32,000 nucleotides of DNA from an uncultured archaeon (GTDB taxonomy: Archaea; Micrarchaeota; Micrarchaeia; Micrarchaeales; CABMGC01), in the NCBI GenBank assembly GCA_963704435.1, contig OY969902.1, forward strand, positions 540,001 to 572,000. Reading direction: 5' to 3'. Shown here one piece after another: positions 8,051 to 29,227 of this stretch. Below the pieces are notes generated by a model. It saw nothing but the letters and a program-made list of their open reading frames with translations, had not been told where the DNA came from and ran no database searches. The translations under genes and the position numbers were made by a program. Each line of letters opens with the position of its first letter. Within the stretch, counting starts at the first letter, position 1.

Positions 8051-8140
8051 CGATGCCCGCATTGCATACGAACCTTAAGCGAGTCTCCCTTTCCACTAGC
8101 CTTTAAATTATTTCCCGTCCATTTATACTATAACGATTTG

Positions 8141-8680
8141 ATGTCACAAAAAATCAAAATAGTCAAACCCATATACGCTCTGGTGGCCGTCGTACTGATT
8201 ATCGGAGTTATTGGACTGATATACTTTGAAGTAGGCTTAACAAGTGAGCCGACGGTCGCAGCGGGAGACGCCATTCAAGTCTACTATACAGGAACCTTTA
8301 CCAACGGCACTGTTTTCGATTCCAATATCGGGGGGCAGACGCTCAATTTTACGGTTGGGGCTAATCAGGTGATTCCTGGATTCGATGAGGGAGTCGTAGG
8401 AATGGAACTTAATGAAAATAAGACCATAACTGTCCCCGCGGACGAGGCCTATGGGCCGATAAACCCAGCGCTGGTTGTACAAGTGCCTCTTTCACAATTC
8501 GGGAATCAGACTATCGAGAAGGGAATGACAATCACTGCGACTTCTGCTTCGAACGGTCAGACGCAGGAAGGCATCGCGACTGCTGTCAACTCCACGATGG
8601 TTACCGTGAACTTCAACTCGCCTCTTGCGGGCCAGACGCTGATATTCAGCGTAAAGGTAGTTGGGATAAGCAAGAAGTGA
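8141..8680 (+). CDS. membrane-anchored FKBP-type peptidyl-prolyl cis-trans isomerase (SlyD-like with insert-in-flap)
   Basis: N-terminal TM segment IYALVAVVLIIGVIGLIYF. FKBP motifs YTGTF.NGTVFDS, VIPGFDEGVVGM and NSPLAGQTLIFSVKVVGI. The track starts at TTG 8138; an ATG is at 8141. Confidence 0.8.
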   Translation: MSQKIKIVKPIYALVAVVLIIGVIGLIYFEVGLTSEPTVAAGDAIQVYYTGTFTNGTVFDSNIGGQTLNFTVGANQVIPGFDEGVVGMELNENKTITVPADEAYGPINPALVVQVPLSQFGNQTIEKGMTITATSASNGQTQEGIATAVNSTMVTVNFNSPLAGQTLIFSVKVVGISKK

Positions 8681-8822: not shown

Positions 8823-8897
8823 GGGCCCGTAACTCAGTTTGGCTAGAGTGGCAGGCTTTTAACCTGAAAGTCGTGGGTTCAAATCCCACCGGGCCCG
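8823..8897 (+). tRNA. tRNA-Lys(TTT), intronless
   Basis: Cloverleaf with acceptor GGGCCCG/CGGGCCC, D arm ACTC...GAGT, anticodon arm GCAGG-CTTTTAA-CCTGA (27:43 G.A mismatch), T arm GTGGG-TTCAAAT-CCCAC, discriminator G. TATA-like ctttaaatt about 30 nt upstream. Confidence 0.9.
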
Positions 8898-8910
8898 CGC
8901 GGTCGATTCT

Positions 8911-10458
8911 GTGGAGAAGAGGACCAAAGAAGAGCTAAGGGACAAGCATTGGTCAGAGCAACTAGTGGACGAGCTTCTCGAGAGGAAGAAACCGCCTTTC
9001 GTGATAACAGGGGGCATGACCACGAGCGGGCCCGCGCACCTCGGGACCGTGGGGGAATTCCTTTATCCGTCCATAATCAAGCAGGGTCTGGAGAACAAAG
9101 GCCACAGGACAGAGTTCTATTTTATCGGGGACATATTCGACGCGTTTGATGGCATACCTGCAGTACTCAAACAGTATGAGAAGGAGCTGACGCCGGAGCT
9201 AGGGAAACCGCTATCTTCCGTGATTGACCCGATGGGCTGCCACGCCTCCTATGGGGAGCATTACCTGTCTGAAGCAATCGATATAATGGAAAAGATGGGC
9301 CTTGACATAAATGTCAAAAAAGCGAACGAGCTTTACGCAGAGGGAGTTTTCGACATCTATGCGAGACTGTTTTTTAAGAACGAGGACAAGGTAAAAGAAG
9401 TGGTGGCAAGGACTTCCCTGAGGAAGATGGAGGACTTCAAGGATTGGAGCCCGATAATGCCGATCTGCGAGGACTGCGGAAAGATAGCAACCACCAAAGT
9501 CACGCGGCATAATGACGATGAATATGAGTATGCGTGCGACAAGGATGTCGAGTACACGAAAGGCTGCGGGTACAAAGGCAAGGCGAGCATACGCGACCAC
9601 AGGTATAAACTGCAATGGAGGCTGCACTGGCCGTCGTGGCAGGCGTATTTCAACTCGAGCATCGAGGGCAGCGGAGTCGACCACATGACGCGCGGGGGCA
9701 GCGCGGATACTGCGAGAGCGGTCCATAAGGAGATCCTTGAGCGTGAGCCTCCTATGCTTTTCAAATACGGTTTCATGCTGTTCCATGGGAAGAAGTACTC
9801 CAAGTCGAAGGGAATCGGGATGGGCGCGAAGGAGCTGATGGGGCTGATGCCCCCTGAGGTGCTGAAATACCTCCTGATTGCGCCTAACCTAGAGCAGAAC
9901 AAGGACATAGACCCTACCGGGGACAAGCTGATCATCGTGTACGACGAGCTTGAAAGGCTCAGCAGGCTGGAGAAAGCCGAGACCAGGCCTGACGAGAAGA
10001 AGCTCACCGCCTTCAGGCTTGCCGTAGGCAAGCTGAACTGGAAGGCCTCGTTCACGGACGTCTTGCTGAACTATCAGATATACCGCGATTGGGAAAGGGT
10101 CGGCAGAATGCTCGGCGATGAGAAGGGCGTCGCGTACCTTGAGCCATACATAACCGAATGGCTGAAGAAGGAGTACGAGCCCGAGAGGTACAATTTCTCG
10201 ATCAAGCCCCAGAAGATAAAGGATCTGAGAGACGTCGTCATGGGGTTCTCCAACTCCCTGAATCCGAAGATGGGCGATGTGGAAATCCACAACCTCGTTT
10301 ACGCGGTCGCTAAGGAGAGGGGGGTCCAGGCGGACCTGCTGTTCAAGGCAGTCTACGAAGCGATCATAGGGAAGGACAAGGGACCCAGGCTGGGAAAGCT
10401 GCTGGCTTCGATAGGCGTGGACAAGGTAAAGGAGATGCTCGCCTTTGCCACAGGCTGA
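8911..10458 (+). CDS. lysK: class I lysyl-tRNA synthetase
   Basis: 515 aa with a HIGH-type motif (SGPAHLGTVGE) and a KMSKS-type motif (KYSKSKG). N-terminal KHWSEQLVDEL matches class I LysRS. GTG start at 8911, with no in-frame ATG upstream. Confidence 0.85.
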   Translation: MEKRTKEELRDKHWSEQLVDELLERKKPPFVITGGMTTSGPAHLGTVGEFLYPSIIKQGLENKGHRTEFYFIGDIFDAFDGIPAVLKQYEKELTPELGKPLSSVIDPMGCHASYGEHYLSEAIDIMEKMGLDINVKKANELYAEGVFDIYARLFFKNEDKVKEVVARTSLRKMEDFKDWSPIMPICEDCGKIATTKVTRHNDDEYEYACDKDVEYTKGCGYKGKASIRDHRYKLQWRLHWPSWQAYFNSSIEGSGVDHMTRGGSADTARAVHKEILEREPPMLFKYGFMLFHGKKYSKSKGIGMGAKELMGLMPPEVLKYLLIAPNLEQNKDIDPTGDKLIIVYDELERLSRLEKAETRPDEKKLTAFRLAVGKLNWKASFTDVLLNYQIYRDWERVGRMLGDEKGVAYLEPYITEWLKKEYEPERYNFSIKPQKIKDLRDVVMGFSNSLNPKMGDVEIHNLVYAVAKERGVQADLLFKAVYEAIIGKDKGPRLGKLLASIGVDKVKEMLAFATG

Positions 10459-10596
10459 CCCCCCAACGCCAGATTGCACATCCGCTTGTCACAGATAGCG
10501 AAAAACGTATTTATACCCTGAAACGCAAACGGAATTGGGGGTTGCATTCCGACTGCGATAGTATTAGGGAAAACGGGCGCCGTTAGCGCAACTGCC

Positions 10597-12183
10597 ATGG
10601 AGCGCATAAAGACGGAGCTTGCTGAGCTGACAAACCAACTCGGAAAGCCATTAAATGACGACCGTGGATACGCAAATTGCGAGTCCATTGAAGAGAAAGC
10701 GCGGCATATCCTGTATTCATCCACTCTGAGAGATGGATCTGAGCTAACAAAACTGTCCCTGCTTAGCTGCATAACATCAGGAGACTATTGGCACGCGTGG
10801 GACTCTCTTGGAAAGATGTGGCCCAGACTTGGCGAGGAGGATCGCGATTTCTATCTTAAAGCAACGCTATATCAAGCATATTCGGGGCCGTCGAGTTTTG
10901 GCAATGTCTGGATTCTTGGGAAATACGACAATGCGGAATTGAGCGGAAGCGGGATGCTCAAGGATCGCCTCTCTGAAGGAGAACTTAAGGATGTGGTAAA
11001 CAGGGCCGTCTGGGAGTTCCTTAATGGTCTCTACACATCTCCAGGTTTTAGTATTCCCCGCGATGATTATGCCTTACTCAACAAGTATTTCGGATACGTC
11101 GATTTCTCGAAGACGAAAGAACTCAGATCCGACAAGCCACTCATTGCGCTCTTAAGTGGCTGGCCTGACGACGCTTACAAGAGCGCATTCGAGTCTGCAA
11201 GAGGAAACATCGACTGGGAATCTGAAGTATGGCTGGCGCACCCCATAATTGACCAGATATTCAGAAACGTCGTATACAGAGAAGATTGTGGATTCGAGTG
11301 CAACTTAGGCAGATCCACTATGATTAAGAGGGCGCAAATCAGCCTCGAGAAGTACGGCAATTACATGAATGATCCTCTAGTGCAATCGATGCTGAAGGAG
11401 TGGTTGGGGGAATCGGTTGTATTTGTAAACGCATACGATGATACGGCTGATGATGCGGTGCCGTGCATAGATTTTCTCTTAAAATACATTGACTCTTCAG
11501 AGGAGGATAAGAAGCAGTTGGTGTGCCAGTTCCTACCAAAGGAAAAGGACTTGTACACGTATCTTATCCATTCGAGGTTCCCTAAGCGCCTACTTACAAA
11601 TGACACCTTGCACGAAGTCCAGGATCAGTTGCTCGCCTGGCTCAATACAGAGCACCTTGGCAAGAAAGACCTTCTTGAATTCATCGGTCTGACAAAGAAC
11701 GCGGCGTCAATGGATTTCTTGAATCAAGAAACTGCCCAGACGCTATTGAAATCCGCACTAGATGCCTATGCCAAATTCAAGCCCAGGCCGGCAACGGATT
11801 TGGTGCTCGAAATGCATCGCAACCTCGATGATCTACTCAAGCTCGGCCTCATAGAGCAGCAGGACTATTTTGAAAAGGGTTTGATCTGCGTCTCCGACCT
11901 ACGACTTAGGAAGAAAAATGAGTTGGCGTACGATCTTGAAAGAAAATTGAACACCATTAAATATGGAAAGGGAGAGGGACTGGAGGCAGTAAAGACGCAA
12001 ATACGCGCTGAACATGCATCTGCCGAGAAGCTTCAGGCGAGCGCGAAGACGCGGGAACGCCGTGGACGCCGTAGCCATCACAGGCAGGTCCAGGCCATGC
12101 GCAGGAGATCCCCGTCTCACAAGTCCGGAAATGGCCATGAACAGTCGCATCTCGACGCTTTTGTAAGTACGATTAGAGAGTGA
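10597..12183 (+). CDS. hypothetical protein P1 (528 aa), paralogue of the next gene; basic Arg/His/Ser-rich C-terminal tail
   Basis: Long open frame in a low-GC patch. It shares a domain of about 230 aa with P2, for example LSEGELKDVVNRAVWEF / ISEGELKECVNEGFWEL and WPDDAYK...WLAHPIIDQIF..VVYRED / WPDSKYK...WLLCPIIEQILYRED. No known family recognised. Confidence 0.6.
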   Translation: MERIKTELAELTNQLGKPLNDDRGYANCESIEEKARHILYSSTLRDGSELTKLSLLSCITSGDYWHAWDSLGKMWPRLGEEDRDFYLKATLYQAYSGPSSFGNVWILGKYDNAELSGSGMLKDRLSEGELKDVVNRAVWEFLNGLYTSPGFSIPRDDYALLNKYFGYVDFSKTKELRSDKPLIALLSGWPDDAYKSAFESARGNIDWESEVWLAHPIIDQIFRNVVYREDCGFECNLGRSTMIKRAQISLEKYGNYMNDPLVQSMLKEWLGESVVFVNAYDDTADDAVPCIDFLLKYIDSSEEDKKQLVCQFLPKEKDLYTYLIHSRFPKRLLTNDTLHEVQDQLLAWLNTEHLGKKDLLEFIGLTKNAASMDFLNQETAQTLLKSALDAYAKFKPRPATDLVLEMHRNLDDLLKLGLIEQQDYFEKGLICVSDLRLRKKNELAYDLERKLNTIKYGKGEGLEAVKTQIRAEHASAEKLQASAKTRERRGRRSHHRQVQAMRRRSPSHKSGNGHEQSHLDAFVSTIRE

Positions 12184-12188
12184 TAAAT

Positions 12189-13103
12189 ATGACAACTATG
12201 ACTATAGATGTGGTTCCTGCAATCATAAACACAGACCGTATGGAGTTCGTGAATCGCGAGTTTCCTCTCGCAGTGAAAAGTGGTCTAATCCATGGACCGG
12301 CGCCGGAAACGCTATCGCTCAGAGACAAGGCCTCAGGGCTGGAAGTGGTATTGAGGAAGTCTCCAAAGGTAGAGGAATTACTGCTGTACGATTATATTGA
12401 ACGTGGCAGTTTCTGGAATGCGGGCATATCGCTTGAGCGAATCAAGCAAAGGATTGCAAATTGGAAGTATCATCTCTATGCTGAAGTGATAAAGTCACAG
12501 GCGATGCAGAACAAGACGGGTGGTGGCGCGGATACGGGCCACGCGTGGCTGGTGGAAGCTCACAAGAAAGGCTGGCTCAAGGGCCACATTTCTGAAGGCG
12601 AGCTCAAAGAGTGCGTCAATGAGGGTTTCTGGGAGCTCATGAATGAATATTTCTATCCTCCACATGCCCATATAACCGTTTTCTCAAAAGTACCGGACAT
12701 TGACAAATACAATACATTGATGTCGTATTCACAGCACCTTGACCTCTCCAGGGCGAAAGAGTTCAGAGAGAAGTTCGGCCTTATCGAGCCGCTCGAATGG
12801 AGGAAAGGATATGCGGATAATAGTCACACATCAGGAGCGAAGTACGACTGGCCTGATTCCAAGTACAAAGATGCAGTAGCCGTGGCCCTTGGCAATGAGG
12901 CCTGCAATACAGATACTGCGGCCTGGCTCCTGTGCCCTATAATCGAACAAATACTGTACCGCGAAGACAATCAACCGTGCTCTTCGGATGAAGTCGCCGG
13001 AATACGCGAGTTAGAACCATACAAAAAGTACCTGGACGAGCCTGATGTAAAGTCTCTAATTCAGCAAATAATATTGCATTTTAGGGATGAATACGGATAC
13101 TGA
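12189..13103 (+). CDS. hypothetical protein P2 (about 304 aa), paralogue of P1
   Basis: The open frame begins at GTG 12180, which overlaps the P1 stop (gtga). The first ATG is at 12189. Similarity to P1 is as listed above. The lowest-GC line counted in the window lies here (37%, line 12661). Confidence 0.6.
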   Translation: MTTMTIDVVPAIINTDRMEFVNREFPLAVKSGLIHGPAPETLSLRDKASGLEVVLRKSPKVEELLLYDYIERGSFWNAGISLERIKQRIANWKYHLYAEVIKSQAMQNKTGGGADTGHAWLVEAHKKGWLKGHISEGELKECVNEGFWELMNEYFYPPHAHITVFSKVPDIDKYNTLMSYSQHLDLSRAKEFREKFGLIEPLEWRKGYADNSHTSGAKYDWPDSKYKDAVAVALGNEACNTDTAAWLLCPIIEQILYREDNQPCSSDEVAGIRELEPYKKYLDEPDVKSLIQQIILHFRDEYGY

Positions 13104-13142
13104 GAGCTCCGGGCGGGGCTGGTGTGCAGGCACATACCACGC

Positions 13143-13174: not shown

Positions 13175-13289
13175 GCCAGGGTGGCGGAATCCGGTATCGC
13201 GTACGCCTGGAAAACAGTCTCGCAAGCGTATGGCTCTCGCGAGCCTTTTGGGTTCAAAAGCAGTTTTGCTGAAAATCCCAACCCTGGCG
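13175..13289 (+). tRNA. tRNA-Ser(GGA) with two introns (12 nt at 37/38; 17 nt in the T-loop at about 59/60)
   Basis: Acceptor GCCAGGG/CCCTGGC, discriminator G, 3-bp D stem GCG/CGC with an 11-nt loop, anticodon stem TACGC/GCGTA. Long variable arm GGCTC-tcgc-GAGCC (class II), T stem TTGGG/CCCAA. Removing 13213..13224 and 13259..13275 restores loops CTGGAAA and TTCAAAT and gives an 86-nt mature tRNA. It overlaps track ORFs 13124..13324 and 13152..13385. Confidence 0.85.
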
Positions 13290-13372: not shown

Positions 13373-13855
13373 ATGGCGGAGCTAAGCGAGTCCGGACTCA
13401 TAGAGAGGGAGCTGACGCTGAGGAACCTCAGGCTCACGAAGGAAGTGCTAGAGACTCGCAGGTCGATCGTCAGGTGGCTGGCCCTCTCGCTCGGCGTGCT
13501 CAACCCGGGTGAATCCAGGCTCAGCGGCATCGCCGTCCTGGATGCGCTGGTGCACTTCCAGTTCATCGCGAGGACAGACCCAACCGTCAGCGAGCTAATG
13601 GAGTACATCGGTAAGAACTGGGAGGCCATGAATGAGAAGACGCTCAGGTACCACCTGCTCCGCATGAAGAACATGGGCCTCGTGGAGAACTCGCAGGGAA
13701 GGTTCAGGCTCAGCCCACCCAACACGGGCGACAGGTTCGACGCCCAGACCTGGGCGACCGGGCTCTATGAGAAGGACTGCAAGGAGATCGCCGCCAAGAT
13801 AGGCGATGCCATAAAGGAACTGAAAAACAAGAACACGATGGGAGGATCGATATGA
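13373..13855 (+). CDS. winged-helix DNA-binding protein (putative transcription regulator)
   Basis: 160 aa. The central segment TVSELMEYIGKNWEAMNEKTLRYHLLRMKNMGLVENSQGRFRL looks like a helix-turn-helix followed by a wing. The stop overlaps the next ATG (atga, 13852). Confidence 0.5.
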   Translation: MAELSESGLIERELTLRNLRLTKEVLETRRSIVRWLALSLGVLNPGESRLSGIAVLDALVHFQFIARTDPTVSELMEYIGKNWEAMNEKTLRYHLLRMKNMGLVENSQGRFRLSPPNTGDRFDAQTWATGLYEKDCKEIAAKIGDAIKELKNKNTMGGSI

Positions 13856-15489
13856 AGAGAGAGATTTATCTTTGGATTGCGCTGATAGTTTTCATCGCCG
13901 CGGCCGCGCTCGTATACAAGTACTTCTACCAGGCCCCGATAAGCCTATCGCTCAGCATGAACGGCAGCGGCGCGGTGAGCGCGATCTACCCCTATCAGAA
14001 CGTCGCGCTCCCGATAGTCATACGGAACACGGGAGGAAGCGCGATAATGAACATGAGCATAGGCATAATCATAAACGGGAACCTCACATCGCTCTACAAG
14101 GTGACTCTCCCTGTCGGGAAGCAGACAGTGATACCATACAATTACAGCCCGACGGCGCCGGGAAAATACAACATAACCGCGGTCGCGGACCCGAGCAAGC
14201 TGTATTCCATATCTGACAGGGGGACGACCCTGTCTGGAGCGACCATTTCGGTCATGGCCCCGGACAACGCGACGCCGTATGCGCTCCTGCCTGCAGCAAA
14301 CCTGACTTCGCTGCAGAGCGTAAACCTGCAGCGCGGGGGTTACATCGTAAACGCTTACCTCAACAGCAGTTTCAGCACCGGCGCGTTCGCCATAATAGGG
14401 AACGGGGAGATAAACAGCTTCATAGGTCCCGTACTGAACCTGACTGCGTATTACACGTACAACTCCAGCCTGGCCAACGCAAAGTATGTCAACGGCGACC
14501 GGGCCTATTCGATATGGATAAGGGGGTACGCAAACCCGTCCATAGTGGCTACCGCCGCAAACGCATCGAAGCTGCAGTACAGCAGCATCAGGACGTCTTT
14601 CGGCAACATGACCCTGGTAAAGATATCCAACGGAACCACGCTATGTAGCTGGTATGCGGGAGGATGGCTCAAGATGCTCGCTTACGTGGGGAGCAGGAGC
14701 TGCTACCAGGCCATAAACGCCAGCGCGGCAGGGGCAGTAAATGGCCCTGCGCACAGCGTCCTACCCAGCAGCTCCGCATTGGAGAATGCGAGCCTGCTCG
14801 CCAACTACACAGGGAAGATGGGCAGCGTCACCTATTCCGCGACGCTCTCGATGCTCGGCAGCTCAACCAACTCGTCGTTCGTCTATGTGGAAGTATCGAA
14901 CAACACCGCTGTGGACAACATCTGCGACGGGATCATAACGAACGTAAGCAACAAGCATTACTGCAGCGTCTACCTGTTCCCGCTGTCCGGCAGCGCGGGC
15001 TCAATTTCGCTGATAAAGACCACTTCCTATGCCGGCACCTACAACCTGACGGTGATGTCCCTGGTCAACACCTCCAAGATACTGGCACAGGCGCAGACGA
15101 ACATAAACATAATAAGAGGGTTCAACTTCAGCGGAAGCTCTATAGGATTCATATCCGGCCGGGTAGACACGTGCTCGTTCAACGCATCGTTCCCTTGCGC
15201 CAACGCGACATTCAACAATGGGATGATGACCTTCCGGATTACTGACAACATGAGCAGCGGGGCAAAGCTAAACAGGGTGGCCTGCTACAGCAGTGGAACG
15301 GCCAACCAAACCTACGTCGGGTCTGCGCTGACGGCTGGCGGCACAATGAACGTCACCGTGCCATGCTACAGTTACGGGGCCCTCATATCAGGGATACCCC
15401 TGAATCTCAACCTCAACCTGCTGCTGAACTATACCGTAGCCAACACTATGAAGACACTGGCGGGAAGAGCGTACATTCCGATCGGGTAG
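13852..15489 (+). CDS. N-terminally anchored, heavily N-glycosylatable surface protein
   Basis: 545 aa with a single N-terminal TM (IYLWIALIVFIAAAALVY). I count about 28 N-x-S/T sequons. Rich in Ser/Thr/Asn/Gly/Ala with almost no charged residues. Confidence 0.6.
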   Translation: MKREIYLWIALIVFIAAAALVYKYFYQAPISLSLSMNGSGAVSAIYPYQNVALPIVIRNTGGSAIMNMSIGIIINGNLTSLYKVTLPVGKQTVIPYNYSPTAPGKYNITAVADPSKLYSISDRGTTLSGATISVMAPDNATPYALLPAANLTSLQSVNLQRGGYIVNAYLNSSFSTGAFAIIGNGEINSFIGPVLNLTAYYTYNSSLANAKYVNGDRAYSIWIRGYANPSIVATAANASKLQYSSIRTSFGNMTLVKISNGTTLCSWYAGGWLKMLAYVGSRSCYQAINASAAGAVNGPAHSVLPSSSALENASLLANYTGKMGSVTYSATLSMLGSSTNSSFVYVEVSNNTAVDNICDGIITNVSNKHYCSVYLFPLSGSAGSISLIKTTSYAGTYNLTVMSLVNTSKILAQAQTNINIIRGFNFSGSSIGFISGRVDTCSFNASFPCANATFNNGMMTFRITDNMSSGAKLNRVACYSSGTANQTYVGSALTAGGTMNVTVPCYSYGALISGIPLNLNLNLLLNYTVANTMKTLAGRAYIPIG

Positions 15490-15492
15490 CGC

Positions 15493-18261
15493 ATGTCCTC
15501 CGACCCATATGAGATATTCCTGGGCAGGTATGGGAGCTTTACCGCAATACAGACCGCGGCGTTCAGCGCCATAGAAGGAGGCGAGAACTGCATAATCCTT
15601 GCGCCGACAGGAAGCGGTAAGACCGAGGCTGCGATACTCCCCATCTTCAAGAGAATAATGGAGGATCACGGCGGCGCTGGGATACGCGCGATATACGTCA
15701 CGCCGCTCAGGGCGCTGAACCGGGACCTGATGAAGCGGCTCGACGGCATGTCCAAGGAGCTTGGGATAAGCGTCGCCGTGAGGCACGGCGACACGACCGC
15801 AAGCGAGAGGCAGAAGCAGGCCGCCCACCCTCCCCAAGTGCTCATAACCACTCCGGAGACGCTGCAGAATCTCTTCCTCTCACAGAGGCTCAGGAATTCG
15901 CTTTCGAACGTGATTGCTGTGATCGTCGACGAGCTGCACGAGCTCTACTCGAACAAGAGGGGCGCGCAATTGGCGGTCGCGCTGGAGAGGCTGGGCGCGG
16001 TGGCGGGGGAGTACCAGCGTATAGGGATAAGCGCGACCATCGGGGACCCGGAAGAGGCCAAGAGGTTCCTTTTCGGGCACAGGAAAGGCAGGGCCATAGG
16101 CGCGGGCGCTGCGAAGGAGATACGCGTAGATGTGGAGATGCCGCTCATCCCCTCGACGGAGCGCAGGGAGTTCAGGGAGAAGTTCGACCTCGACCTTCCC
16201 ACGCTCGCCAGGCTGGAGAGGATCGCGGACATCGTCCGCCAGTCCGACTCCATACTAGTATTCGCCAACACCCGACAGGTTGTCGAGTCCCTGGGGAGCA
16301 AGCTGCTCTACCTGAACCGGATCAGCCCGTTCGGAAGCATAGGGATACATCACGGATCGCTCGACGTGAAAGAGCGCGTTGAGGTGGAGAACGCCTTCAA
16401 GGAGGGGAGGGTGAAAGGCATAATCGCCACGAGCTCGCTGGAGCTGGGCATAGACATCGGGAGCATCAACATGGTCCTGCAGTACGGCTCACCGAGGCAG
16501 GTTGCAAGGCTAGTCCAGAGGGTCGGCAGGGGAGGGCACAGGGAGCGCGAGACGTCGTACGGGAAGATAATCGTAGGCAACTACATCGACGCCTTGGAAT
16601 CACTCGCGATAATAGGCCAGATGGGCAGGGGCTCGATGGAGAAGCACGGAATGGAAGAGCTCGCGATGGACGTCCTGGCGAACCAGATATGCGGCATGGC
16701 GCTGGAGTACAAGAAAATAGGTGAGGATGCGCTTTACCGCATAATCCATGGCGCCGCTCCGTACAAGAACCTGGCGAAGAAAGATTTTGAAAAACTCCTC
16801 AGCTTCCTCGCGGAAGAGAGGCTCGTCAGGATAAAGGACGGCTACGTCGGGATAGGTTCACGCTGCAGGGAATACTTCTTCTCCAACATAAGCGTGATAC
16901 CCGACACCGTGCGCTTCTTCGTGCGGGACGCCGCAAGCAACAGGACAATTTCCTCGCTCGACGAGAAGTTCGTCTCGAACTACCTGGATGAGGGGACGGT
17001 GTTCATAACCAAGGGCCTCCCGTGGAGAGTAATCAGCATGGAGGAAGGATCTGTGTTCGTGGAGCCCAGTGCGGAGTTCGAGGCTGCCATACCTGACTGG
17101 GAAGGAGAGGACATACCCGTGTCACAGGATACGGCCCGCGGCGCGTTCGAGCTAATAGGCAGAGGGGTCGCGGGATATTACGGGGTGCTGGACGGCAGCC
17201 TGCGCAAGGAGCTGGAATCATTCATCTCCGCCCAGAGGAAGCGCTTCCTCCCCGCAGGCGGGGACATCGTCGTAGAGGAGCTTGACGACTACGCCATAAT
17301 CTACGCTGCGCTTGGCAAGCTAGCGAACGAGTTCGTCGCCAAGCTCATCGGCAACGTCGCTTCGCAGCTCTCGGGCTCTAGGCTGATGACAAAGGCGACG
17401 CCCTATGCGATAATAGTCGACTACAGCGGAGCCAGGAAGAAGCCAGACATAAAGCGCGTGCTCGACACTATCAAGAACTACTCCGCTGAAAGCGTGCTCG
17501 GGCGCGATGGCGCAATCATAAGCACGGAGCTCTTCAGGTACAAGTTCATACGGGTCTGCAAGCTTTTCGGGGTGGTATCGAAGAAGGCAGTGATTACGAA
17601 GCACGACGCAGACAGGCTCATCAGATTCTACAAGGATTCTCCCATATTCGATGAGGCCCTGAGGGACTTGAAGAAGAATAACATCGATGCAGAAACGGGC
17701 ATGCGGTTCCTGGGCGAAATCAGGAAAGGCGCGGTAGGAATAAGTGTGTTGGAGGGAAGCCTGTCACCGCTCGGCAATGAGATACTGAAGGCCTCGTACA
17801 GCTACAGGGAGCTATTGCTGCCAGCGCTGCCTGACGACGCCACAATCAAGGAGTTCGGGGACAAGATCGGCGCCAAGAGGATGGAGCTCCTCTGCACTTT
17901 CTGCAGTCTTGACTTCTTCAGAAACATTGACATCGAGTCCAAGGAGGGAGTCGCGTGCCCCCGCTGCTCAAGCCCGATGGTGTGCATTTATGGGGAAGAG
18001 AAGGCGACCGCCGTGGAGAAGAGGGCTTCCAACAAGGCGCTTGCAGAGAAGGAGAGGGGCACATATAGGGAGGCGCTAAAGGAAGCGAGCCTGGTGGAGG
18101 CTTATGGAAACAGGGCACTGGCGGCCCTCTCCACCTACGGGATAGGGCCGGCGACCGCGGCACGGGTGTTGCGGCTATTGCGCAAGGACAAGAGGCAGTT
18201 CCTGATAGACCTCCTGGAAGCGCAGAAGACCTTCATAAAGACAAAGAAATACTGGAAATAG
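15493..18261 (+). CDS. lhr: Lhr-family DExH-box ATP-dependent helicase with C-terminal zinc ribbon
   Basis: 922 aa. Motif I APTGSGKTEAA, motif II VDELHE, motif III-like ISATIG, motif VI QRVGRGGHR. C-terminal CTFC...CPRCSS. Starts 3 nt after the upstream stop. Confidence 0.8.
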   Translation: MSSDPYEIFLGRYGSFTAIQTAAFSAIEGGENCIILAPTGSGKTEAAILPIFKRIMEDHGGAGIRAIYVTPLRALNRDLMKRLDGMSKELGISVAVRHGDTTASERQKQAAHPPQVLITTPETLQNLFLSQRLRNSLSNVIAVIVDELHELYSNKRGAQLAVALERLGAVAGEYQRIGISATIGDPEEAKRFLFGHRKGRAIGAGAAKEIRVDVEMPLIPSTERREFREKFDLDLPTLARLERIADIVRQSDSILVFANTRQVVESLGSKLLYLNRISPFGSIGIHHGSLDVKERVEVENAFKEGRVKGIIATSSLELGIDIGSINMVLQYGSPRQVARLVQRVGRGGHRERETSYGKIIVGNYIDALESLAIIGQMGRGSMEKHGMEELAMDVLANQICGMALEYKKIGEDALYRIIHGAAPYKNLAKKDFEKLLSFLAEERLVRIKDGYVGIGSRCREYFFSNISVIPDTVRFFVRDAASNRTISSLDEKFVSNYLDEGTVFITKGLPWRVISMEEGSVFVEPSAEFEAAIPDWEGEDIPVSQDTARGAFELIGRGVAGYYGVLDGSLRKELESFISAQRKRFLPAGGDIVVEELDDYAIIYAALGKLANEFVAKLIGNVASQLSGSRLMTKATPYAIIVDYSGARKKPDIKRVLDTIKNYSAESVLGRDGAIISTELFRYKFIRVCKLFGVVSKKAVITKHDADRLIRFYKDSPIFDEALRDLKKNNIDAETGMRFLGEIRKGAVGISVLEGSLSPLGNEILKASYSYRELLLPALPDDATIKEFGDKIGAKRMELLCTFCSLDFFRNIDIESKEGVACPRCSSPMVCIYGEEKATAVEKRASNKALAEKERGTYREALKEASLVEAYGNRALAALSTYGIGPATAARVLRLLRKDKRQFLIDLLEAQKTFIKTKKYWK

Positions 18262-29141: not shown

Positions 29142-29227
29142 GCGCCAGTAATCTAACCTGGTTAAGATACGAGCTTCCCAAACCTCGGAATAAGCTCGCG
29201 ATCCGGGTTCAAATCCCGGCTGGCGCA
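29142..29227 (+). tRNA. tRNA-Gly(CCC) with a 12-nt intron at 37/38
   Basis: Acceptor GCGCCAG/CTGGCGC, discriminator A, D arm ATCT-AACCTGGTTA-AGAT, anticodon stem CGAGC/GCTCG, T arm CCGGG-TTCAAAT-CCCGG. Helix TTCC (29175-78) / GGAA (29187-90) is followed by 3-nt bulge TAA. Removing 29181..29192 yields loop TTCCCAA. Confidence 0.85.

Follow-up and report, generated by a model that had tools for sequence, protein, structure and literature searches.

A tandem pair of predicted all-helical orphan proteins in a variable slot between the lysyl-tRNA synthetase and tRNA-Ser genes of Micrarchaeota

Several described systems resemble one or another feature of the locus considered here. Helical-repeat scaffolds such as Ctr9, IFIT1/IFIT5 and LGN are all-helical and built largely of helix pairs, and the IFITs occur as tandem paralogs. 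The tRNA-binding cofactors of aminoacyl-tRNA synthetases (Arc1p, Trbp111 and AIMP-type proteins) have OB-fold (EMAP/Trbp111) or GST-like domains. Displacement of class II lysyl-tRNA synthetase (LysRS) by the unrelated class I enzyme is known, and so are the multi-intron pre-tRNAs of ARMAN and Micrarchaeota. In this study, a stretch of 32,000 nt from an uncultured archaeon of the Micrarchaeota (positions 540,001 to 572,000 of contig OY969902.1, assembly GCA_963704435.1) was analyzed. This whole stretch is called the window, and positions are counted from its first letter. The subject is a pair of adjacent genes, P1 and P2, in the region 10459-13110, which a first-pass annotation had put forward as its best candidate for an undescribed accessory module.

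The analysis indicates that P1 and P2 are probably real coding genes of a small orphan family, which reached their position by an old insertion and a duplication, form one unit, and encode soluble, all-helical, dispensable proteins whose mechanism of action we infer. Like the IFITs, P1 and P2 are tandem paralogs, and the helical-repeat scaffolds named above were the sole Foldseek returns; the template-modelling (TM) scores, however, were only 0.1-0.25, so the general architecture is alike but family membership is not indicated. The likeness to the synthetase cofactors consists of synthetase and tRNA genes as neighbors in three contexts and of a basic tail of P1 that could bind RNA. In contrast to these cofactors, P1 and P2 are predicted to be all-helical without an OB-fold or GST-like domain, and their family is missing from most relatives. 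As in the known LysRS displacement, unrelated LysRS classes replace each other next to the pair, and no genome searched has both; here the exchange takes place in situ and within one genus, flanked in each case by the same tRNA-Lys and the same promoter region of P1, and it is also seen within at least six other genera of the taxonomic family. The downstream tRNA-Ser, with introns in the anticodon loop and the T loop, resembles the multi-intron pre-tRNAs; it does not belong to the protein pair and is relevant as the conserved boundary of the slot that holds the pair.

The protein pair and its family

In the following, G000 denotes this genome, G043, G057 and G018 denote congeners (genus g1), and L119-L121 are metagenome contigs. 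The open reading frame of P1 (10597..12183, + strand) encodes 528 amino acid residues (aa). It comprises an N-domain (residues ~43-270; 10723..11406, +), which was delimited by alignments and family motifs and is common to P2, and a C-domain (residues ~276-440; 11422..11916, +), delimited by alignments; a long helix and a basic tail come after the C-domain. Based on its open reading frame, BLASTP and its orthologs, P2 (12189..13103, +; 304 aa from ATG 12189, or 307 aa from GTG 12180) is an N-domain-only paralog of P1; the C-domain is kept by most family members and has no counterpart in P2. The paralogy proposed in the first-pass annotation was confirmed (BLASTP E 7e-24, 30% identity over 255 columns, P1 43-268 versus P2 57-296). 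All of the conserved blocks quoted there were located, namely SEGELKDVVNRAVWE / SEGELKECVNEGFWE, WPDDAYK / WPDSKYK, WLAHPIIDQI / WLLCPIIEQI and YRED, and their DNA identity, given as ~70%, was counted as 74/108 (69%). The conserved motifs of the N-domain are rich in aromatic residues (WHA, VNxGFWE, LDL, WxxxxY and PII), and P1 is 45-49% identical to its orthologs. The proposal that the duplication is old also held. In a quick IQ-TREE maximum-likelihood tree, a P1 clade and a P2 clade were each recovered with support of 100, and both were joined with P0009 in one clade (support 99). Each of the two clades holds members of several species, and P2 would thus be a truncated tandem duplicate that predates the split of the sampled congeners.

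The two genes are tightly coupled. The P2 frame had been described as overlapping the P1 stop, and GTG 12180 does overlap TGA 12181-12183; the likelier start of P2, however, is ATG 12189, because the 304-aa product is present in a public protein collection (P0001) and fits the ortholog N-termini. The coupling holds with either start, and the P1/P2 junction of G043 is likewise an overlap (ATGA). A TATA/BRE-like element (BRE, B recognition element), ATTTATACCCTGAAA, lies at 10509..10523 (+), ~75 nt ahead of the P1 start. It was found 15/15 identical in the spacer ahead of the G043 ortholog of P1, where the remaining spacer is dissimilar, and it is the putative promoter of the P1-P2 unit.

Relatives of P1 and P2 were collected by several searches. 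The word-indexed homolog search yielded 3-4 relatives for each of the two proteins. When 1.84 billion cluster-representative proteins were searched with a profile, only 58 clusters were found, mostly of 350-530 aa and with the two-domain architecture of P1. A third homolog search, with a 59-sequence profile, gave no further relatives; P2 alone as the query against genome contigs gave no related loci, and a narrower alignment as the query gave 8 metagenome loci. The shared domain had been said to belong to no recognizable family, and the searches of Pfam, NCBIfam, PADLOC, PHROGs, PDB sequence profiles and Foldseek (PDB, BFVD) were all negative. When the 59 members were scanned one by one, no Pfam family was matched by more than two of them, and P2 had no Pfam match. 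NCBIfam and PADLOC returned 0 matches for P1 and P2, and the best PHROGs matches were only at E > 0.07. A DUSP match in P1 (18.7 bits, E 0.0025) was dropped, as it lies below the cut-off of 29.3 and is present in 1/59 members. The PDB sequence-profile search returned nothing meaningful, its best match being a de novo designed helix bundle (E 0.002), and neither sequence profile nor fold similarity related the pair to a deposited PDB chain. The PADLOC result likewise gave no indication of a toxin-antitoxin or defense pair, and P1 and P2 are unlike a toxin-antitoxin pair because both are large and paralogous to each other.

Structure models were obtained with AlphaFold2 from 9-sequence alignments. 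The P1 model (predicted local distance difference test, pLDDT, 82.4) has 26 helices, with a helix of 60 residues at the end and then a disordered basic tail, and P2 was modeled with a pLDDT of 80.8 and a predicted TM score of 0.79. Both models are all-helical, without beta strands. Foldseek searches of the PDB (run twice) and BFVD returned only generic TPR/solenoid proteins with TM scores of 0.1-0.3. The best match of P1 was a helical-repeat protein (E 5e-4, probability 0.98), and the shared domain alone (P2) gave nothing below E 0.06. Membership in the TPR, Sel1 or HEAT families was not indicated, with no repeat match in Pfam for any of the 59 members and Foldseek TM scores of ≤0.25, and neither was a relation to Trbp111/EMAP or Arc1p, as no tRNA_bind OB-fold or GST-like Pfam match was found and no strands were modeled. 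An internal duplication linking the N- and C-domains was ruled out by hhalign (probability 1.9%). The profile, structure-prediction and Foldseek checks that had been suggested were carried out, and no well-characterized housekeeping family was recovered for P1 or P2. The conserved columns of the family alignment are mostly W, Y, F, L, I, A, G and P, with no recognizable catalytic motif among them. No hydrophobic segments were found in P1 or P2 (maximum 19-residue hydropathy 0.7-0.9), and both are predicted to be soluble, without a transmembrane segment.

The Arg/His/Ser-rich tail of P1, KTRERRGRRSHHRQVQAMRRRSPSHK (12046..12126, +), had been regarded as foreign to the rest of the gene. Its patch (12040-12130) is indeed locally rich in guanine plus cytosine (GC; 66%, versus 45-48% in the remaining P1), but a foreign origin did not hold up: the P1 orthologs P0006, P0007, P0008 and that of L121 carry the same kind of tail, which is native because it is conserved, and the GC richness of the patch is accounted for by Arg codons. 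Residues 441-528 of P1 have an isoelectric point (pI) of 10.5, the P1 body has a pI of 5.1, and P2 is acidic. Basic C-termini were also found in many other family members.

The source genome is a single contig of 852,977 bp (GC 55.5%, estimated completeness 92%), and the GyrB it encodes shares 61-65% identity with the GyrB of Candidatus Micrarchaeaceae metagenome-assembled genomes (MAGs), Micrarchaeota MAGs and Candidatus Micrarchaeum strain A_DKE, which marks the organism as a DPANN member of the Micrarchaeota. Among species-representative genomes, the family was present in 4/101 of the taxonomic family and in 10/248 of the order (6/60 genera); no member was found in strain A_DKE, in three other named MAGs, or among the other families of the phylum, of which more than 220 genomes were searched. 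Searches of IMG/VR contigs, phages and plasmids yielded no relatives of P1 or P2, and the narrower alignment gave no viral loci. P1 and P2 thus represent an orphan family so far limited to one order of Micrarchaeota (DPANN). This genome also encodes a third paralog, of 496 aa and more distantly related (G000:C1:36813-38303; L003 853-2343), which has an extra N-terminal region of ~200 aa. One member, in G233 (G233:C3:76067-77281, L025), contains two in-frame TAA stops and may be a pseudogene or a match that runs past the gene ends.

The slot between LysRS and tRNA-Ser

The pair had been placed between lysK and a tRNA gene, and this placement was correct: lysK ends at 10458, and tRNA-Ser(GGA) starts at 13175. 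In the order of the genes on the + strand, an FKBP-type isomerase (8138-8680) comes first. It is followed by tRNA-Lys(UUU) (8823..8898, +), which was found by ARAGORN and Rfam, lies 12 nt ahead of the LysRS start and forms the upstream conserved anchor, and by class I LysRS (lysK, 8911..10458, +; NCBIfam TIGR00467, 294.6 bits; Pfam tRNA-synt_1f, E 8e-77). The downstream conserved anchor is tRNA-Ser(GGA) (13175..13289, +), with introns of 12 nt in the anticodon loop and 17 nt in the T loop. Beyond it lie a winged-helix gene, a CARDB surface protein gene and an Lhr-type helicase gene, in that order and on the + strand. Upstream of the class II LysRS of G043 and G057, the same tRNA-Lys was found with its promoter-like CTTTAAATTGCTTC.

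The content of the slot varies between the anchors. In genus g18 the backbone consists of tRNA-Lys, lysK, ~100 nt, the two-intron tRNA-Ser and S13-S4-S11, and the P1/P2 slot is empty. In genus g1, LysRS and tRNA-Ser are separated by P1 and P2 in G000, G043 and L121, by P1 without P2 in L119 and L120, by P2 without P1 in G057, and by two unrelated genes in G018. The tRNA-Ser is 88-98% identical right after the slot in G043, G057, G018 and L119-L121, and it was found right after lysK in g18. According to this comparison, the expected recurrence of a tandem pair beside a tRNA gene was observed in part, since the pair does stand between LysRS and tRNA-Ser in congeners, with a slot content that varies. 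The proposed accessory status is supported by the same polymorphism, the slot being empty in another genus, and the description as an undescribed accessory module fits a family without described relatives that occurs in so few genomes of its order. The pair appears to be an old, dispensable insertion in a conserved junction, with its own putative promoter.

The rates of divergence were compared between the slot and its flanks. Between G000 and L121, identity was 52.5% for P2 and 44% for the P1 C-terminus, versus 96.9% for the winged helix-turn-helix (wHTH) protein, 82% for CARDB and 98% for tRNA-Ser. Between G043 and L120, P1 was 49.5% identical, versus 92% for LysRS and 93% for S13. In the only unsaturated pair, L119 and L120, the ratio of nonsynonymous to synonymous substitution rates (dN/dS) was 0.20 for P1 at dS 0.28 and 0.05 for LysRS at dS 0.22. 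Based on this dN/dS of 0.20, P1 is under purifying selection, ~4x more relaxed than that on LysRS. Intact ortholog frames were found in at least 6 genomes or contigs. The genes thus appear to be dispensable and to evolve several-fold faster than their neighbors, yet to be kept by purifying selection.

Function and competing explanations

The history that best fits these data begins with a P1-like gene (N- plus C-domain, ~400-530 aa), which would have been inserted at the LysRS/tRNA-Ser(GGA) junction in the genus ancestor. A tandem duplication would have followed, in which the second copy shed the C-domain and the tail to become P2. The pair would be expressed as one unit from its own TATA-like promoter, and translation would be coupled across the 5-nt gap or GTGA overlap here and the ATGA overlap in the congener. 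As to mechanism, we tentatively suggest that P1 and P2 may be helical scaffolds or binding proteins without enzymatic activity. Binding would take place on the aromatic-rich N-domain; in P1, nucleic acid or an acidic partner would be contacted by the long helix together with the Arg-rich tail, and P2 would act through the same N-domain as a tail-less partner or competitor.

Several points weigh against this interpretation. The features from which the binding-scaffold mechanism is drawn are general ones, and the mechanism is a possibility held with low confidence. The polar residues His66, Asn135, Glu140 and Asp169 are moderately conserved, so an enzyme is still conceivable. An obligate heterodimer is unlikely, because P2 occurs without P1 and P1 without P2. 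In addition, model error could account in part for the lack of a fold match, since the models rest on 9-sequence alignments.

The alternative that survives best, although it is unlikely, is that P1 and P2 form a conflict-related hypervariable cassette, serving antiviral nucleic-acid sensing or interaction with the archaeal host, whose alleles are recombined between the tRNA anchors. The divergence of the P1 and P2 proteins, which far exceeds that of the flanks in both G000/L121 and G043/L120, is consistent with it, as are the sharp climb in sequence similarity at the tRNA-Ser promoter, the presence/absence polymorphism of the slot and the swap of the adjoining LysRS cassette. Fourfold-site differences in distant pairs, which amounted to 0.60-0.71 in P1/P2 versus 0.38-0.53 in the flanks, also fit, but these sites are near saturation and the codon bias of P1 and P2 is weaker than that of the flanking genes; the excess could reflect replacement by divergent alleles or, equally, faster synonymous change in weakly biased genes, and for these reasons the excess divergence of P1 and P2 can be explained by faster evolution without recombination. 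Dcm, AIPR, Vsr and a transposase stand just past tRNA-Ser in G057, but they are across the tRNA from P2 and unlinked to it. IFIT1 and IFIT5, which are helical-repeat RNA binders, were among the weak fold matches of P1, but the resemblance is generic (TM ~0.17-0.2). PADLOC gave no match, and dN/dS in the sole unsaturated pair was 0.2, not above 1. A stronger version, in which P1 and P2 would constitute a new class of hypervariable intracellular specificity or defense proteins, that is, nucleic-acid-binding helical scaffolds with alleles swapped as cassettes between the tRNA anchors, is considered improbable. If it were true, alleles of P1 and P2 and both unrelated LysRS classes would be swapped in one recombination hot spot.

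A slightly less probable alternative, and a doubtful one, is a translation-linked cofactor that binds tRNA or an aminoacyl-tRNA synthetase in the manner of Arc1p- or Trbp111-type helpers, in which the basic tail of P1 would contact tRNA. It would account for the position of the pair beside LysRS and tRNA genes, and P1-P2 follow a LysRS of either class. The third paralog is convergent with the seryl-tRNA synthetase (SerRS) gene and lies ~1.4 kb from tRNA-Leu(TAG), and the G182 member immediately precedes the gene of a class II Asp/Asn/Lys-type synthetase. Other members among the ~14 independent contexts adjoin MetAP, aEF-2 plus L7Ae, or L30 plus L15; further neighbors, named by eye from sequence, are PAC2-like, Rpr2-like, MsrA-like, FKBP-like and RNA polymerase subunit genes. 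However, a synthetase was a neighbor in just 3 of the ~14 contexts (LysRS, SerRS and the Asp/Asn/Lys-type enzyme). This count exceeds expectation (roughly p = 0.02), but the value is a post hoc hand estimate, and the genomes are very dense in translation genes. As a functional clue, synthetase adjacency was weakened from 3/8 to 3/~14 once the metagenome loci were joined. The family was not found in ~96% of the genomes of the order, strain A_DKE included, so that a general role in translation is precluded. The models showed no resemblance in fold to known tRNA-binding domains, and the pair's own candidate promoter would make co-transcription with LysRS unnecessary.

A recently acquired mobile or viral islet at a tRNA gene is very improbable, and this explanation has already been largely refuted. 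The first-pass annotation had called the region a low-GC islet. The stretch 10459-13110 does have a GC content of 48.4%, versus 55.5% in the genome (6th percentile of same-size windows), but the dip is mild: taken singly, the two genes rank near the 10th-15th percentile of genes in GC and in GC at third codon positions, and the FKBP gene next door, which congeners carry at the same position, is equally low in GC. The location of the pair between two tRNA genes and the variable content on either side of tRNA-Ser would also suit such an islet. Against it, the same position is occupied in three species of the genus and on three metagenome contigs; no integrase open reading frame was found in 8.9-13.4 kb, nor were attachment-site (att)-like direct repeats or partial tRNA copies found around the pair, and the searches of IMG/VR, phage and plasmid collections and viral fold space (BFVD) gave no relatives, so that membership in a mobile element or provirus is not indicated. 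The picture of a recent, compositionally striking island was accordingly abandoned, as the pair keeps its position in congeners, has a conserved TATA-like element of its own and has a GC content at about the 10th percentile. Least credible of all is that P1 and P2 are decaying or non-functional relics, for although fast divergence, patchy distribution, frequent loss and the two in-frame stops of the G233 member could be read in this way, frames of 304-559 codons are intact in orthologs that are only 42-55% identical, dN/dS is 0.2, the motif blocks and predicted helices are kept over the 59 members, and the AlphaFold2 models are confident. An old, duplicated and dispensable insertion that encodes soluble helical proteins thus remains the preferred interpretation of the pair.

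Variation along the surrounding backbone

The synthetase that follows tRNA-Lys differs in class between congeners. It is class I in this genome (TIGR00467, 295 bits) and class II in G043 and G057 (TIGR00499, ~600 bits), and the G018 enzyme is likewise class II. The regions compared were 8823-10458 of the window, L007 4742-6291 and L004 6424-7972. With either class, the same tRNA-Lys lies 12-13 nt upstream and the same P1 region lies downstream, and a class II LysRS was not found in this genome. Among 100 genomes of the taxonomic family, class II was present in 67, class I in 21 and both in 0, and six genera hold both types. The class I LysRS found here is 56-67% identical to those from other genera of the family. 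This is a recurrent displacement of an essential enzyme by a non-orthologous one, in situ and at the variable locus of P1 and P2. In the literature library searched, no paper named Micrarchaeota together with lysyl-tRNA synthetase.

A second variable slot was observed directly past tRNA-Ser, ahead of the S13-S4-S11 operon (13373-18261 of the window, compared with L004 9325-15321, L007 9108-11165 and L119 2639-3217). It holds wHTH, CARDB and Lhr genes here, HAD and PGM genes in G043, a GNAT gene in L119 and L120, and, in G057, Dcm, AIPR and Vsr along with a transposase; in genus g18 it is empty.

The tRNA-Ser(GGA) that separates the two slots was missed by ARAGORN with default settings and by Rfam, and it was called by ARAGORN once both introns were cut in silico. 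It is the sole Ser-GGA tRNA in the ARAGORN list for the genome, and at least 8 related loci have retained it together with both introns. Its first intron, AAAACAGTCTCGCA (13211-13224), is perfectly complementary over 14 nt to lysK 9360-9373. By a hand estimate, ~0.05 such complementary pairs are expected by chance in the 4.9-kb region. In G043, which has the class II LysRS, the first tRNA-Ser intron differs at 2 positions. The complementarity is probably due to chance; less likely, the intron, once released, would serve as an antisense RNA. Elsewhere in the window, at 29142-29227 (+; genome 569142-569227), default ARAGORN reported a tRNA with the four-base anticodon 'ccca'; with introns allowed, the same positions were called as tRNA-Gly(CCC) with a 12-nt intron.

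Lineage-restricted orphan families are numerous in DPANN archaea, and P1/P2 by itself adds another. Its 58 clusters, its two domains, its motif set and its confidently modeled helices define it sufficiently for registration as a domain of unknown function and for use as a target in structure determination. The locus is of wider interest: on a conserved backbone of tRNA-Lys, LysRS, tRNA-Ser and the S13 operon, the gene content, the protein sequence and the class of an essential synthetase all differ among close relatives. The interest is somewhat higher for the locus as a gene-replacement hot spot than for the proteins, and the locus offers a compact natural case for gene exchange and replacement in very small symbiont genomes.

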